Shown one piece after another: positions 9,017-10,848 of a DNA stretch of 64,000 bases. The stretch covers positions 4,412-68,411 of the forward strand of contig CALVIY010000003.1 in assembly GCA_944331955.1 (NCBI GenBank). Direction: 5' to 3'. A program made the translations under genes and the position numbers. This stretch comes from an uncultured Bacilli bacterium. GTDB taxonomy: Bacteria > Bacillota_I > Bacilli_A > RF39 > UBA660. How positions within the stretch are numbered: the first letter of the stretch is position 1; the number at the start of each line of letters is the position of its first letter. The notes below the pieces were generated by a model. It was not told the origin of the DNA. It searched no databases and saw only the letters and a list, made by a program, of their open reading frames with translations.

Positions 9017-9070
9017 TTCCTTTCTTATGGCTACTTATTATACCATTTAAATTAACAAAAAATCAAAAAG

Positions 9071-9140
9071 TATTTACTAAAACAAATTGTTGTGATACAA
9101 TAAAGATGTATTAAATGAAAGAGATTTCATATAATATTAA
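9071..9140 (+). repeat. copy 1 of the duplicated ~70-nt promoter/leader module (mate at 9908-9977)
   Basis: Near-identical to 9908-9977. Contains TTTACT (9073-78), a 17-nt spacer, TGaTACAAT (-10 at 9096-9101) and the leader hairpin ATGAAAgagaTTTCAT. Confidence 0.85.
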
Positions 9141-9168
9141 AGTAAGTTATTTACTTACACATATGAAA

Positions 9169-9270
9169 ATGTTTCTCGCTTCTGGGTGGCTGGCGAGTAA
9201 TAAATGATCCCAATAGGCAATGTTTCTCGCTTCTGGGTGGCTGGCGAGTAATAAGTAATCCCAGTGGAAA
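9169..9270 (+). ncRNA. type III antitoxin-like RNA: 2 tandem 51-nt repeats
   Basis: Unit ATGTTTCTCGCTTCTGGGTGGCTGGCGAGTAATAAaTGATCCCAaTaGG occurs twice head-to-tail (period 51). It is locally GC-rich, with CTCGC/GCGAG and CTGGG/CCCAG pairing potential. It sits between a promoter and a terminator, upstream of a toxin-sized ORF. Confidence 0.75.
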
Positions 9271-9276
9271 ATAACT

Positions 9277-9310
9277 AGAAAATTCTATCGTTTGATAGAA
9301 TTTTCTTTTT
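9277..9310 (+). terminator. Rho-independent terminator between the antitoxin repeats and toxin 1
   Basis: Perfect 13-bp stem AGAAAATTCTATC/GATAGAATTTTCT, 4-nt loop, then TTTT. Confidence 0.85.
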
Positions 9311-9385
9311 AAAAAAAACATTGACGAACATATTTTTAGTGTGGTACACTTAAGTTACAGTTTATATTTTTGGGGGTATAGAAAC

Positions 9386-9880
9386 ATGAAAATAAAAACA
9401 GGATACTTATATCATATTAAAGATGAATTTTTTGATATTGCTAATGATGAGAATTTAATGACTAACCATGAGCGAGGAAAAGCAAGGCCCACTTATTTTA
9501 CAATTAAAGATAAAAATATATTATGGTTTATACCTTTAAGTAGCAAGGTAGAAAAATATAAAAAGATAGTAGATAAGAAGACGAAAAAATATGGTTTTTG
9601 CAATACGATTTTAATTAAAAAGATTTTTGATGAGGAAAGTGCGATATTGTTACAAAACGCTTTTCCTGCTATAGAAAAATATATTAATCATGTCCACATG
9701 CGAAATGGTAAACCGGCAAAAGTTCCTCCAAAAATAGAAAAAGAGATAGAATCAAAATTTCGTGAATTAATGTTATTAAAAAAACGTGGAATAAATCTCT
9801 TCTTTGCTAATATAGATAAAATTAAAGAACAAATGTTAAAAGAACTTAATAATACTTGCTTAGAAAATTCTAGTATTTAA
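9386..9880 (+). CDS. type III TA toxin candidate (distant ToxN/AbiQ-superfamily-like endoribonuclease, possibly CptN-like)
   Basis: The ATG at 9386 follows a GGGGG SD. The upstream GTG extension in the ORF track is unlikely. 164 aa, with a WFIPLSSKVEKYKK segment reminiscent of the ToxN/AbiQ PLSS-K motif. The call relies on position after the repeats plus terminator. Confidence 0.6.
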   Translation: MKIKTGYLYHIKDEFFDIANDENLMTNHERGKARPTYFTIKDKNILWFIPLSSKVEKYKKIVDKKTKKYGFCNTILIKKIFDEESAILLQNAFPAIEKYINHVHMRNGKPAKVPPKIEKEIESKFRELMLLKKRGINLFFANIDKIKEQMLKELNNTCLENSSI

Positions 9881-9907
9881 ATCAATAAAAATCAAAAAAT
9901 CAAAAAA

Positions 9908-9977
9908 TATTTACTAAAATAATTTACTGTGATACAATAAAGATGTATTAAATGAAAGAGATTTCATATAATATTAA
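9908..9977 (+). repeat. copy 2 of the duplicated promoter/leader module
   Basis: TTTACT (9910-15), 17-nt spacer, TACAAT (9933-38), and the same leader hairpin as copy 1. Confidence 0.85.
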
Positions 9978-9979
9978 TG

Positions 9980-10053
9980 GGTTTTACCATTCCTATAAAA
10001 AATGGACGTATAAAGCGGTTTAACCATTCCAGTAAAAAATGGTTTAGTAAAGA
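9980..10053 (+). ncRNA. toxI: ToxI/antiQ-like antitoxin RNA: ~2 (plus a partial third) tandem 37-nt repeats
   Basis: GGTTTtACCATTCCtaTAAAAAATGG... and GGTTTaACCATTCCagTAAAAAATGG... with period 37. Each unit has a CCATT/AATGG hairpin and an A-rich AAAAAAU tract. Confidence 0.75.
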
Positions 10054-10188
10054 GGTGGCATTAGTCATCTCTTTTATTAATTATATTGCCAAATATCTAA
10101 TACGTTGTTAAAATATAATTGCGATAAGAGTTCTTAGCTAAAAGCTGAAAGCTGTGGTGTTCATAAAAAACTTATATGGGAGGAAAAA

Positions 10189-10743
10189 TTGAATAATGAA
10201 CATCTGTCATGGTATGTGCTTTCTAAGAAATACGTTGAATATTTACAACGGTATGATAGTCTTGTTCAAAATATAGACTATGGTGATAATGAAATTAAAC
10301 CATATATAGGAATTGTATTACAAATAAATAATTTTAACTATTATGTGCCTATTTCATCTGCAAAAGAAAAGCATTATAAAATGAAAGAAGGAAAAGATTT
10401 TATTATAATAAAAGAACATTCTAAAATATTAGGCGTTTTAAATTTAAATAATATGATTCCAGTTTTATTAAGTGAGGCAAGTGCTTTAAAATATAATAGT
10501 ATAAATAATTATAGAAAGTTCAAAGATAAAAAAGAACGATATGAATATATTAGTTTGCTAGATAAAGAAATGAAAATAATAAATGCTAGAAGAAAAGAAA
10601 TATGTACAAAAGCAAGAAAGCTATATGATGAGAAAAATAATAACCCTAATTCAAGACTCAGTAAAAGGTGTTGCAATTTTAAATTGTTAGAAGAAAAAAG
10701 TATAAAATACTTAAAAACAAAAAATTGCCAAGTAAAAAATTGA
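10189..10743 (+). CDS. toxN: ToxN/AbiQ-family type III toxin endoribonuclease
   Basis: TTG start 6 nt after GGGAGG. Matches remembered ToxN/AbiQ sequences at YIGIVLQINNFNYYVPISSAKEKH, LGVLNLNNMIPV and CNFKLLEEK. Confidence 0.85.
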   Translation: MNNEHLSWYVLSKKYVEYLQRYDSLVQNIDYGDNEIKPYIGIVLQINNFNYYVPISSAKEKHYKMKEGKDFIIIKEHSKILGVLNLNNMIPVLLSEASALKYNSINNYRKFKDKKERYEYISLLDKEMKIINARRKEICTKARKLYDEKNNNPNSRLSKRCCNFKLLEEKSIKYLKTKNCQVKN

Positions 10744-10759
10744 CTTCTATTACATAATA

Positions 10760-10810
10760 AACATTTGAAAATGTTTTAGAAAATTCTAGTAGTTTATAGA
10801 ATTTTCTTTA
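10760..10810 (+). terminator. double hairpin terminator after toxN
   Basis: AAACATT/AATGTTT hairpin followed by AGAAAATTCTA/TAGAATTTTCT. The second stem is homologous to the 9277-9306 terminator. The T-tract is weak. Confidence 0.55.
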
Positions 10811-10848
10811 TCGTTGTGTTAAACTAATAGACGTGTTGGGAAGGAGGA

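Follow-up and report, generated by a model that had tools for sequence, protein, structure and literature searches.

[quoted passage not shown] In the ToxIN/AbiQ-antiQ systems of Pectobacterium atrosepticum (pECA1039), Bacillus thuringiensis, E. coli and Lactococcus (AbiQ), a promoter is followed by tandem repeats of ~34–37 nt, an intrinsic terminator, and an endoribonuclease with the ToxN fold; Gram-positive members of the family have few repeats. A phage-encoded pseudo-ToxI, an antitoxin mimic that comes without a toxin, has reportedly been found as well. The second family, CptIN, is represented by the system of Eubacterium rectale (PDB 4RMO), whose two repeats are built from a 45-nt CptI unit folded as an H-type pseudoknot and whose CptN has an RNase active site composed of a Ser-Ser/Thr-Arg triad, Asp81, Ser85 and Tyr104 (PMC4627078). 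The type III TA model, as reviewed, has a single promoter (PMC5086642), and gaps of 232–340 bp between terminator and toxin have been reported with no features noted in them (PMC3401426). Moreover, more than one type III family can occur per genome, and six type III loci are found in that of Leptotrichia goodfellowii (Blower et al. 2012, PMC3401426). The same report has no adjacent cassettes, shared promoter/leader or orphan arrays, and the words “adjacent” and “orphan” are absent from it.

In the window, by which is meant the whole 64-kb stretch of DNA analysed, two type III families likewise occur in one genome, but here their cassettes are contiguous and share their borders. It is likely that two complete, heterologous type III cassettes stand here in tandem, CptIN followed by ToxIN, and, as part of the same reading, that recombination drives a cassette array of which this locus is one allele, at a fixed hotspot between the gene U154 and dnaG. 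Each cassette taken alone is an ordinary family member; the novelty is the shared-module array with orphan antitoxins, set on known type III ground. The features of the locus are as follows.

8552..9016, minus strand: U154, a conserved divergent gene (154 aa) that forms the left array border in most relatives.
9056..9140, plus strand: shared promoter/leader module, copy 1, an 85-nt repeat with -35, extended -10 and leader hairpin inside.
9073-9101, plus strand: promoter-like site of module copy 1, with -35 TTTACT (9073-9078), a 17-nt spacer and TG-extended -10 TACAAT (9096-9101) (promoter scan).
9108-9137, plus strand: leader hairpin of copy 1, 12 bp, imperfect, with a GAGA loop (fold).
9142..9158, plus strand: small second hairpin, GTAAGT-loop-ACTTAC, just 5′ of the first repeat and present in cptI-type cassettes only (fold).
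9168..9269, plus strand: cptI antitoxin array of two 51-nt units (9168-9218 and 9219-9269), repeat family D2.
9277..9311, plus strand: terminator T1, a 13-bp stem and T run between cptI and cptN (inverted repeat I8, fold).
9321..9350, plus strand: cptN-proximal promoter-like site, TTGACG-18-TACACT, with TG before the -10 (promoter scan).
9386..9880, plus strand: cptN, predicted CptIN-family type III endoribonuclease toxin, 164 aa (NCBIfam and PDB matches).
9860..9875, plus strand: left copy of the 16-nt exact direct repeat (TTAGAAAATTCTAGTA) on either side of the ToxIN cassette.
9893..9977, plus strand: shared promoter/leader module, copy 2 (repeat search, promoter scan, fold).
9910-9938, plus strand: promoter-like site of module copy 2, TTTACT-17-TACAAT, with TG before the -10 (promoter scan).
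9945-9974, plus strand: leader hairpin of copy 2, 12 bp, imperfect (fold).
9972..10045, plus strand: toxI-type antitoxin array of two 37-nt units, repeat family D3.
10049..10080, plus strand: terminator T2, an 11-bp stem and T-rich tail between toxI and toxN (terminator scan, fold).
10086..10114, plus strand: toxN-proximal promoter-like site, TTGCCA-17-TAAAAT, with TG before the -10 and 10/12 matches (promoter scan).
10189..10743, plus strand: toxN, predicted ToxN/AbiQ-family type III endoribonuclease toxin, 184 aa, TTG start.
10758..10776, plus strand: cptI-type leader-end remnant (…ACATTTGAAAATGTTT), repeat family D7, matching 9156-9174.
10776..10809, plus strand: terminator T3, repeat family D4, 85% identical to T1 and holding the right copy of the 16-nt repeat (10776-10791).
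10815..10825, plus strand: extended -10-like element TGTGTTAAACT upstream of dnaG, read from the sequence.
10855..12588, plus strand: dnaG (primase), the right array border (ORF; Pfam domains of the identical L001 gene).

The two cassettes are organized in the same order, namely shared promoter, leader hairpin, repeats, intrinsic terminator, toxin-proximal promoter-like site and toxin gene. A sequence-only reading of this DNA had proposed just such a duplicated promoter/leader ahead of two repeat–toxin cassettes, at positions within a few bases of those given here, and the follow-up bears it out: T1 and T2 lie between the repeats and the toxin ORFs, the two module copies are 94% identical across 85 nt (repeat search), and promoter scan and folding both recover TTTACT-17-TACAAT and the leader hairpin in each copy. 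Fainter similarity between the copies reaches upstream to ~9044/9874 (repeat family D5), and exactly two copies of a 29-nt leader core are present in the 64-kb window, against a chance expectation of 0 even when 3 mismatches are allowed. The hairpin starts right after the module’s -10 box; a 36-nt leader core folds into its 12 bp, imperfectly, with one unpaired position, and ATGAAAgagaTTTCAT represents the inner portion of this longer structure. The promoter calls lean only on position and conservation: 15 promoter-like matches were returned versus 13.8 expected in shuffled sequence. A terminator scan, on the other hand, gave 3 terminator-like sites versus 0.3 expected, with T1 and T2 placed at 9277-9306 and 10049-10074 and the T1 palindrome reported on the minus strand. 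Tandem Repeats Finder, with a minimum score down to 30, gave neither the 51-nt nor the 37-nt array; a separate repeat search gave both.

From these elements, we infer that the 85-nt module combines a sigma-A-type promoter with either a 5′-terminal stem-loop or an operator palindrome. The module keeps its -35, 17-nt spacing and TG-extended -10 among relatives, and its orientation is always toward the cassette. The leader core is 94–97% identical between species, in a set that includes loci reached via protein but in which most loci came from a pattern requiring the core, whereas synonymous third positions are 70–81% identical in cptN and 64–79% in dnaG. A leader peptide (ATGAAAGAG…) was considered and rejected: it is without a Shine-Dalgarno sequence, its frame runs on differently in each cassette, and loop variants alter its residues.

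Whether the conserved palindrome acts as RNA or as DNA leads to the strongest alternative, a variant of the main model in which it would be an operator for a dimeric repressor overlapping the transcription start, such that co-regulation would pass through a transcription factor rather than a 5′ RNA hairpin. This is possible, if tentative. The 12-bp imperfect inverted repeat lies directly past the -10, a natural variant in copy 1 of L016 turns it into a perfect palindrome, and a conserved gene divergently adjoins the array in most species; the stems, moreover, are invariant among loci, and there is thus no covariation to separate an RNA hairpin from a DNA palindrome. Against the operator, domain searches of the neighbouring 154-aa and 272-aa proteins gave no DNA-binding domain, and in CptIN and ToxIN loci outside the hotspot a 5′ hairpin of other sequence directly precedes the first repeat, which points to an RNA-level role.

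The first cassette is a predicted CptIN type III TA cassette. That its ORF encodes a type III toxin, as had been suggested, is borne out by a match to the NCBIfam CptIN equivalog NF047359 at 158 bits (cutoff 90) and by homology to E. rectale CptN (PDB 4RMO, E=2.3e-22 over residues 4-148); PADLOC and Pfam searches gave no match, and the identification comes from NCBIfam and the PDB only. The window protein shares with E. rectale CptN the Ser-Ser motif, the Asp and the Ser, with its S-S-K, Asp and Ser aligned with S51-S52-R53, D81 and S85. It differs in that Lys replaces the Arg of the triad and His occupies the Tyr104 column. Ser52, Lys54 and His104 (window numbering) are invariant in aligned clade homologues, and Ser53 is nearly so. 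The AlphaFold model (pLDDT 41, from a shallow alignment of sequences at least 68% identical) was too poor for a fold search.

The two 51-nt cptI units, already noted by the earlier reading, are 88% identical to each other, and each can fold into an H-type pseudoknot (S1 CUCGC/GCGAG, S2 CUGGG/CCCAG), with a single S2 mismatch in unit 1, where the partner reads CCCAA. Across relatives, 94% of cells are paired over the 10 S1 and S2 pairs, and 5 pairs have changed on both sides; this score was matched by 0/500 shuffles, and slid controls were at most 50% paired. The window and E. rectale have in common two repeats, the same pseudoknot design and an A-rich L2 loop (UAAUAAAUGAU and UAUAUAAAUGG, respectively), but the window unit is 51 nt rather than 45 nt and has a longer S1 loop. 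Beyond the E. rectale system, the window has an extra 5′ leader hairpin, a toxin-proximal promoter-like site and a multi-cassette array. The small GTAAGT/ACTTAC hairpin keeps its stem while its loops vary among loci, and a different hairpin takes its place in CptIN loci outside the clade. A T1-type terminator is kept in all CptIN cassettes. The -35 and -10 of the cptN-proximal site are retained in relatives despite a diverged spacer, for example in L022, and the site is absent at CptIN loci outside the clade.

The second cassette is, on homology and predicted structure, a ToxIN/AbiQ type III TA cassette. The sequence-only reading had recognized its ORF as ToxN/AbiQ and had proposed a Pfam search and structure prediction of both toxins as a check. 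For ToxN both proved positive, with 164.6 bits to Pfam PF13958 (cutoff 25) and an AlphaFold model (pLDDT 91) that best matches ToxN/AbiQ structures (TM 0.70–0.84 to 2XD0, 4ATO, 7D8O and 4GLK), and for CptN the positive result is the NCBIfam one, its own model being unusable. ToxN also matches PADLOC AbiQ (1.8e-34) and, in a PDB sequence search, ToxN/AbiQ entries, and it shares with known members the toxin fold and an S-S-x-K motif. The 37-nt tandem repeats described earlier likewise hold up, as two full units (76% identical) and a third, partial unit that merges into the terminator; each unit carries a CCAUU/AAUGG hairpin. They are homologous to an array of 3 x 36 nt that precedes a ToxN of 62% identity on a contig with a Rep3 replicon, where the stem shows the compensatory pair CUGUU/AACAG. 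A search of the region against Rfam gave nothing above threshold and no ToxI-family match; a wcaG RNA hit on the toxI repeats (25.9 versus 42 bits) was sub-threshold and treated as chance. In contrast to known ToxIN/AbiQ loci, the promoter/leader is common to the neighbouring CptIN cassette, there are only two full repeat units, and a gap of ~110 nt with its own promoter-like site separates terminator and toxin. That site is kept in L031 as TTGCTA-17-TAAAAT though the spacer has changed. CptIN and ToxIN relatives away from the hotspot have other promoters and lack the toxin-proximal one.

If the solved structures of ToxIN and CptIN are a guide, each endoribonuclease would process the precursor of its own repeats to individual pseudoknots of 51 nt or ~37 nt, which would then keep it inactive in a closed ring of RNA and protein; once the antitoxin ran short, for example through phage-induced transcription shut-off, the RNase would be freed, in a presumed phage-defence role. 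The common module would supply both antitoxin arrays with identical transcriptional input. Because each toxin has its own promoter-like site past the terminator, the shared module may drive the cassettes only in part.

The variability of the locus becomes clear from relatives. The compared set comprised 13 species-representative MAGs from uncultured gut Bacilli (Candidatus Onthousia and its relatives), plus metagenome contigs. In each of the 13 genomes the module is confined to one locus, upstream of dnaG wherever flanks are readable, with 1–3 module copies per locus between dnaG and, in most relatives, a U154 homolog. Eight different array states are flanked by a U154 homolog and dnaG, as follows.

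L020, L021, L029: a lone module with a single cptI unit, toxin-less.
L022, L024: CptIN only.
L025: CptI′N′ (a second specificity type) only.
L006, L019, L026, L030, L032: CptIN and an orphan array.
L028: orphan toxI and CptIN.
L016: orphan toxI, CptI′N′ and CptIN.
L031: ToxIN, then CptI′N′.
Window: CptIN, then ToxIN.

Two variants of the cptI pseudoknot are found, CUGGG/CCCAG and CCGGA/UCCGG, and each precedes the gene of its own CptN paralog (L016, L025, L031); the two paralogs are 64% identical. The proposal that one module had been recombined onto unrelated antitoxin/toxin pairs, with comparison of this intergenic position in related genomes as the suggested check, thus fared well: the same module heads CptIN, the second CptIN type, ToxIN and orphans, in shuffled sets whose order differs between species. 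Constant flanking core genes and variable cargo among related genomes are also what defines a defence/TA hotspot. With the module as 5′ border and the terminator as 3′ border, each cassette would carry portable homology for recombination, which would allow cassettes to be gained, lost, reordered or reduced to orphan antitoxin arrays.

Integron arrays and defence hotspots similarly occupy a fixed site between conserved genes, with small cassettes that vary in number and order between repeated borders. The array here differs from integrons, however, in having no integrase and no attC/attI and in the promoter copy carried by each cassette; an integron-like reading was rejected, as no recombinase was found at or beside the locus in ~20 loci and the repeated border carries a promoter rather than an attC. 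The simplest explanation of cassette exchange is homologous recombination between module and terminator copies. It is rather unlikely that the module serves mainly in recombination or mobility, as an attC-like or MITE-like border with incidental promoter hexamers. It does form the 5′ border of every cassette, its imperfect hairpin has an unpaired position, cassette order differs between species, and a 16-nt direct repeat surrounds ToxIN; but integrase, transposase and recombinase are all absent at the locus in every genome, the promoter spacing and the orientation toward the cassette are constant, the direct repeat lies in the terminator rather than the module, and a single locus in each of 13 species-representatives is unlike the dispersal of a mobile repeat.

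Some of the same comparisons could be taken to mean that the locus is a decaying remnant, made of non-functional leftovers of old insertions whose conserved pieces are merely recent. Parts of these arrays are apparently decaying, because toxN is frameshifted in some strains and many relatives have orphan, hybrid or chimeric arrays, including a chimera with a broken pseudoknot in L026, and the toxI array of the window has two full units only. For the locus as a whole, decay is nevertheless improbable: neither toxin ORF is disrupted in the window or in either of two independent metagenome contigs, the toxins score far above family cutoffs with active-site motifs retained, pseudoknot pairs are kept by compensatory change, and the leader core has changed less than synonymous sites.

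The junction with dnaG records how the present allele may have arisen. The ToxIN cassette (~916 nt) splits the terminator downstream of cptN, with the 16-nt direct repeat on either side, and the final cptN codons lie within the left half of this interrupted T3. In L024, whose CptN is 93% identical, the cptN/T3/dnaG junction is uninterrupted. ToxIN thus appears to have inserted into the terminator after cptN of a CptIN-only ancestor. Since the second module copy of relatives heads an orphan cptI-like array, the module duplication is apparently older than the arrival of ToxIN at this position, and the segment at 10758..10776, compared with the orphan arrays of L006, L015, L019 and L026, is a putative leftover of an earlier cptI-type array.

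The pair sits directly upstream of the dnaG-sigA operon, as previously stated and as gene order in the ORFs confirms, with dnaG as the first gene of dnaG-sigA-trmK. It is therefore worth asking whether the promoter–repeat–terminator unit is mainly a regulatory leader of that operon with the TA cassettes as passengers. Toxin-less L020, L021 and L029 retain the module, one cptI-like unit and the terminator directly upstream of dnaG, and in TA-free L039 the gene preceding dnaG is flanked by a similar promoter and the same terminator. This reading is nonetheless very doubtful, as solo cptI-like units are degenerate in L015, L021 and L029, and the T3-type terminator, found ahead of dnaG in all relatives, would block rather than drive dnaG expression. 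Moreover, dnaG owns an extended -10 downstream of that terminator, kept in all relatives as TGTG(T/C)TAAAAT, or TGTG(A/C)TAAACT in L006 and L020. Finally, tandem duplication of one TA locus followed by divergence, suggested only by the duplicated 85-nt head and similar terminators, is refuted by toxins of two different families, as earlier claimed, each past its curated family threshold (CptN without a ToxN_toxin match, ToxN without a CptIN match), and by repeats unrelated in length and sequence.

The array contrasts with isolated, two-part, single-promoter type III operons: different families are stacked in a chromosomal array sharing a promoter/leader, closely related species differ in what their arrays contain, an antitoxin array can outlast its toxin, and each toxin may have its own promoter. 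It is conceivable, if speculative, that the space upstream of dnaG is a dedicated exchange platform on which a portable head (promoter and 5′ hairpin) and a portable terminator tail allow any type III cargo, CptIN of either specificity or ToxIN, to be added, swapped or removed by homologous recombination, and orphans are kept as immunity (anti-addiction) elements; such orphan arrays may also send read-through transcription into the essential dnaG-sigA operon. If this is true, orphans would protect against related toxins brought in by new cassettes or by mobile elements. Pseudo-ToxI and the clade’s orphans are both toxin-less antitoxin arrays, but the latter are chromosomal and lie inside the host’s own cassette array. 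The cptI, toxI and leader patterns had no match in IMG/VR viral contigs, which leaves phage-borne mimics or carriers unsupported, and the leader pattern had none in JGI metagenome contigs. The locus offers a concrete setting in which to examine a possible immunity role of orphan RNA antitoxins, a natural series (two cptI variants and natural hybrid arrays) for the evolution of cognate RNA-toxin specificity, and a promoter/leader that is a candidate for portable use in uncultured, AT-rich gut Bacilli. Because the hosts are uncultured MAGs, function is accessible only heterologously. As a minor observation, L015 has a 214-aa ORF behind a toxI-type array. The idea that it encodes a new toxin is probably wrong; it looks like a resident operon gene, because in a TA-free relative a homolog with 45% identity immediately precedes dnaG.

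The sequence-only reading had proposed two back-to-back type III toxin-antitoxin cassettes under a duplicated promoter/leader, and this architecture has held up. The ~70-nt leader repeat proved to be an 85-nt direct repeat of 94% identity (9056-9140 and 9893-9977; repeat search), hereafter the module, with weaker similarity continuing ~12–20 nt further upstream (repeat family D5). Both copies carry TTTACT-17-TACAAT and a hairpin, and a search of the 64-kb window for the 29-nt leader core yields exactly these two matches, with none expected in shuffles even when three mismatches are allowed. 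As also proposed, each copy is followed by different tandem repeats and then by a toxin-sized ORF, and the pair lies directly upstream of dnaG-sigA, with dnaG-sigA-trmK following the toxN cassette.

Features of the two cassettes, by window position
9073-9101 and 9910-9938: promoter-like TTTACT-17-TACAAT with TG before the -10, in both module copies (promoter scan)
9108-9137 and 9945-9974: leader hairpin, an imperfect stem of 12 bp capped by a GAGA loop (RNA fold)
9168-9269: cptI array, two 51-nt units, 88% identical, following module copy 1 (repeat search)
9277-9306: T1, terminator-like hairpin 3' of cptI (terminator scan)
9321-9350: promoter-like TTGACG-18-TACACT between T1 and cptN (promoter scan)
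9386-9880: ORF1, cptN
9972-10045: toxI array, two 37-nt units, 76% identical, directly following module copy 2 (repeat search)
10049-10074: T2, terminator-like hairpin 3' of toxI (terminator scan)
10086-10114: promoter-like TTGCCA-17-TAAAAT between T2 and toxN (promoter scan)
10189-10743: ORF2, toxN

A third, partial 37-nt unit merges into T2, and the scan found three terminator-like sites against 0.3 expected. The stem-loop spans nearly the entire leader, the hairpin first described being its inner portion.

Both ORFs passed the family HMM check for type III toxins. ORF1 scores 158 bits on the NCBIfam CptIN equivalog model (cutoff 90) and matches the sequence of 4RMO, CptN of Eubacterium rectale (E=2.3e-22, residues 4-148); no Pfam or PADLOC model matches it. 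It belongs to the CptN toxin family. In an alignment of 23 distinct cptI units from the window and related loci, an H-type pseudoknot (S1 CUCGC/GCGAG; S2 CUGGG/CCCAG) is 94% paired, and at five of the ten pairs both partners change (e.g., CCGGA/UCCGG and CCGGG/CCCGG); the covariation score was reached by none of 500 shuffles, and slid controls were at most 50% paired. The 51-nt units thus resemble CptI, in agreement with the E. rectale antitoxin, whose H-type pseudoknot is 45 nt long with an A-rich L2 loop and is encoded by two repeats in the genome (PMC4627078).

ORF2, already recognized as ToxN/AbiQ-like, reaches 164.6 bits on Pfam ToxN_toxin (cutoff 25) and 1.8e-34 on PADLOC AbiQ, and its sequence matches ToxN and AbiQ structures in PDB. 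The best four PDB matches of its AlphaFold model (pLDDT 91.2) are ToxN of P. atrosepticum, B. thuringiensis and E. coli, together with AbiQ (TM 0.70–0.84); sequence and model alike assign the predicted protein to the ToxN/AbiQ toxins. Its 37-nt units have counterparts on L033, a contig that also carries a Rep3-type replication gene: three homologous 36-nt repeats precede a ToxN of 62% identity, and the hairpin stem CCAUU/AAUGG of the window's toxI becomes CUGUU/AACAG there. The toxI repeats (9978-10058) also give a sub-threshold score against the Rfam wcaG RNA motif (25.9 bits, gathering score 42, E=0.052), both consisting of two tandem hairpins with U/A-rich loops; this resemblance is probably chance.

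On two metagenome contigs from other samples, with cptN identical to the window's, toxN (L003:1004-1557 and L004:971-1524) has suffered a 1-bp deletion near window position 10435-10436 that splits it into ORFs of 83 and 96 aa, so that toxN is a pseudogene in some strains. Two substitutions were also seen (compared region, window 10276-10436), one of which turns the SSAKEKH motif into SSTKEKH.

The sequence criteria of Blower et al. for type III loci are a toxin, a terminator before it and tandem repeats before that (PMC3401426), and both window cassettes show this order; each is an ordinary new member of its own family. Single hosts are known to carry multiple type III loci and families, and unusually long repeat-to-toxin gaps are likewise on record (PMC3401426). 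No description of contiguous heterologous cassettes with a common promoter/leader, of an array polymorphic between species at a fixed site, of chromosomal orphan antitoxin arrays (repeats without a toxin) or of toxin-proximal promoters was found in the type III literature covered (PMC3401426, the 2016 review PMC5086642 and a 2025 tenpIN survey) or by full-text search.

Comparison of this intergenic position in related genomes revealed the same flanking genes around different cassette content. The identical locus occurs in other metagenomes (L001 and L002; exact-protein look-up), and related species share hisS, aspS, a 272-aa gene, a divergent 154-aa gene and dnaG-sigA-trmK. A scan of one genome per species found the leader core in 13 MAGs, each with a single matching locus; their labels read uncultured Bacilli, ‘Tenericutes’ or Candidatus Onthousia, the last a genus of Bacilli from chicken gut. 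Wherever the flank reaches a neighbour gene, the module is placed shortly before dnaG, or past a homolog of the 154-aa gene where the contig ends first (L031); on L027 the flank is too short to place it relative to genes.

Array states in the window and related loci (CptI'N', second CptIN specificity type)
L020, L021, L029: module, one cptI-like unit, terminator and dnaG, without a toxin
L022, L024: CptIN only
L025: CptI'N' only; repeats with the CCGGA/UCCGG pseudoknot variant, toxin 64% identical to the window's CptN
L006, L019, L026, L030, L032: CptIN and a second module copy that leads into an orphan cptI-like array
L028: orphan toxI array and CptIN
L016/L023: orphan toxI, CptI'N' and CptIN
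L015: toxI array, 214-aa gene and CptIN, then an orphan array
L031: ToxIN, then CptI'N'
Window: CptIN, then ToxIN

Orphan cptI-like arrays (module, one or two units and terminator, no toxin) stand directly upstream of dnaG at L006:4510-4750, L019:3030-3240, L026:950-1110, L032:5143-5330, L020:322-480, L021:3810-3960 and L029:845-1000. Some are hybrids of both specificity types, CUGGG/CCCAG and CCGGA/UCCGG (L019, L032), and that of L026 is a single chimeric unit whose pseudoknot is unable to pair. Frameshifted toxN in some strains and degenerate orphan units are signs of decay. Repeated modules may be collapsed or mis-joined in MAG and metagenome assemblies (L003 and L004 break off within cptI repeats), but several of the states recur across independent samples and assemblers.

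The window locus is best described, from these comparisons of sequence, as one allele of a cassette array. The idea of one module placed on unrelated pairs by cassette-like exchange fits well here: relatives show the same head with varied content, and in CptIN relatives elsewhere (L008, L011) and the ToxIN of L033 the repeats and terminators are almost unchanged but the promoters differ, so that the shared head belongs to this array and not to the CptIN or ToxIN family. In its outcome the array is comparable to integron cassettes and defence hotspots, but no recombinase was seen at the loci examined; homologous recombination between repeated heads and tails would suffice to explain it.

The second CptIN type (L016:312-1125 and L025:410-1180) has a toxin, CptN', that passes the CptIN model at 157.5 bits, and repeats, cptI', in which S2 has switched to CCGGA/UCCGG and the S1 loop is 2 nt shorter; the two form a putative natural toxin/RNA co-variation pair within the same array. 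The 214-aa protein (L015:1470-2114), whose gene follows a toxI-type array and a strong promoter, TTGACT-17-TATAAT, has no family match. It was considered as a toxin, but its gene is more probably a resident one that opens the dnaG operon: in a TA-free relative, a homolog of 45% identity is situated directly between the 272-aa gene and dnaG (L039:2501-3079; also L036:1732-2358). L016 and L028 retain just the last ~30 nt of this gene. At the left border, two conserved genes, the 154-aa gene (8552-9016, - strand) and the 272-aa gene (7727-8545, + strand; N-terminal hydrophobic segment), encode proteins with no significant match in Pfam, NCBIfam, PADLOC or PHROGs, and the former is missing from L039.

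The history of the window allele can be read from T3, the terminator before dnaG. In L024, with a CptN of 93% identity, the end of cptN overlaps T3: the first arm of the terminator supplies the last codons, and dnaG begins ~80 nt further on. T3 is split in the window, where TTAGAAAATTCTAGTA occurs at the end of cptN (9860-9875) and at the start of the intact T3 (10776-10791); the ~916 nt between hold module copy 2, toxI, T2, toxN and a cptI-type leader remnant (10758-10776, resembling 9156-9174; repeat family D7). On the most economical reading, a CptIN-only ancestor gained a ToxIN cassette within its T3; the reverse event, a deletion between the two 16-nt copies of TTAGAAAATTCTAGTA, would restore the L024 state. 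L020, with a single terminator directly before dnaG and the same flanking sequence as L022, its closest relative here, keeps one cptI unit whose pseudoknot core is identical to the second unit of L022, and looks like a cptN deletion from an L022-like state. T1 and T3 are 85% identical (repeat family D4), and recombination between them, or between repeat units, could account for this deletion. In the window (9858-9880) and in L024 (2505-2535), CptN ends in …LENSS-, residues that the first arm of T3 encodes, and relatives with a downstream orphan array have another C-terminus (…NSETISSK; L016:1960-1985 compared); the 3' end of cptN has apparently been remodelled by cassette deletions and insertions.

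Because no intact terminator is left between cptN and toxI in the window, cptN transcripts would run on into the second antitoxin array. By analogy with known type III systems (PMC4627078, PMC5086642, PMC3401426), each RNase would cut its own repeat precursor into single pseudoknots, and a closed complex (CptIN 2:2, ToxIN 3:3) would keep it inactive. With antitoxins specific to cognate toxins, the cassettes would be insulated from each other while sharing transcriptional input. Since E. rectale CptIN stabilised plasmids but did not protect E. coli against phage (PMC4627078), a defence role for the CptIN cassette is an assumption.

Promoter-like matches as a class are not enriched over shuffles, and the toxin-proximal calls draw only on position and conservation. 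The site before cptN is kept as TTGACA…TAAACT in L022 although the spacer diverged, that before toxN is TTGCTA-17-TAAAAT in L031, and both are missing from the canonical relatives L008, L011 and L033. The textbook model has a single promoter, and conserved promoter-like sites placed after the terminator and ahead of the toxin in each cassette would depart from it.

The module itself is best read as a putative promoter of sigma-A type, its -10 extended by TG, that leads into a 5'-terminal stem-loop. Several observations lead to this reading. Its orientation and hexamer spacing are invariant in 22 distinct copies, where the sequence to its left varies only with upstream content. The 36-nt leader core is 94–97% identical between species, against 70–81% (cptN) and 64–79% (dnaG) at synonymous third positions, a conservation inflated by the retrieval of most loci through the leader pattern and also seen in loci found via protein. 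The module abuts the first repeat in toxI cassettes, and a second small hairpin lies between them in cptI cassettes (9142-9158). Finally, unrelated CptIN and ToxIN loci have a hairpin of other sequence directly 5' of the first repeat, which suggests that a structured 5' end is a general requirement. The leader palindrome would fit an RNA hairpin or a DNA operator, and the two cannot be told apart because its stems never vary among copies.

The 5' half of the leader (ATGTATTAAATGAAAGAGAT; 9106-9125 and 9943-9962) is 80% complementary to the T2 3' arm and tail (10067-10086), and the T2 5' arm (AAAGAGGTG) resembles the leader's AAAGAGAT; alternative pairing is possible, and the match may be an AT-rich coincidence. 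The CptIN locus of L008 stands elsewhere on the chromosome, beside mutS, and has its own promoter; ~100 nt upstream of that promoter lies a leader-core-like ATGTTTAAAGAAAGAATAATTTCATATAATAATAA, then a small hairpin (L008:3680-3760; also L010:85-160), perhaps a vestige of this module.
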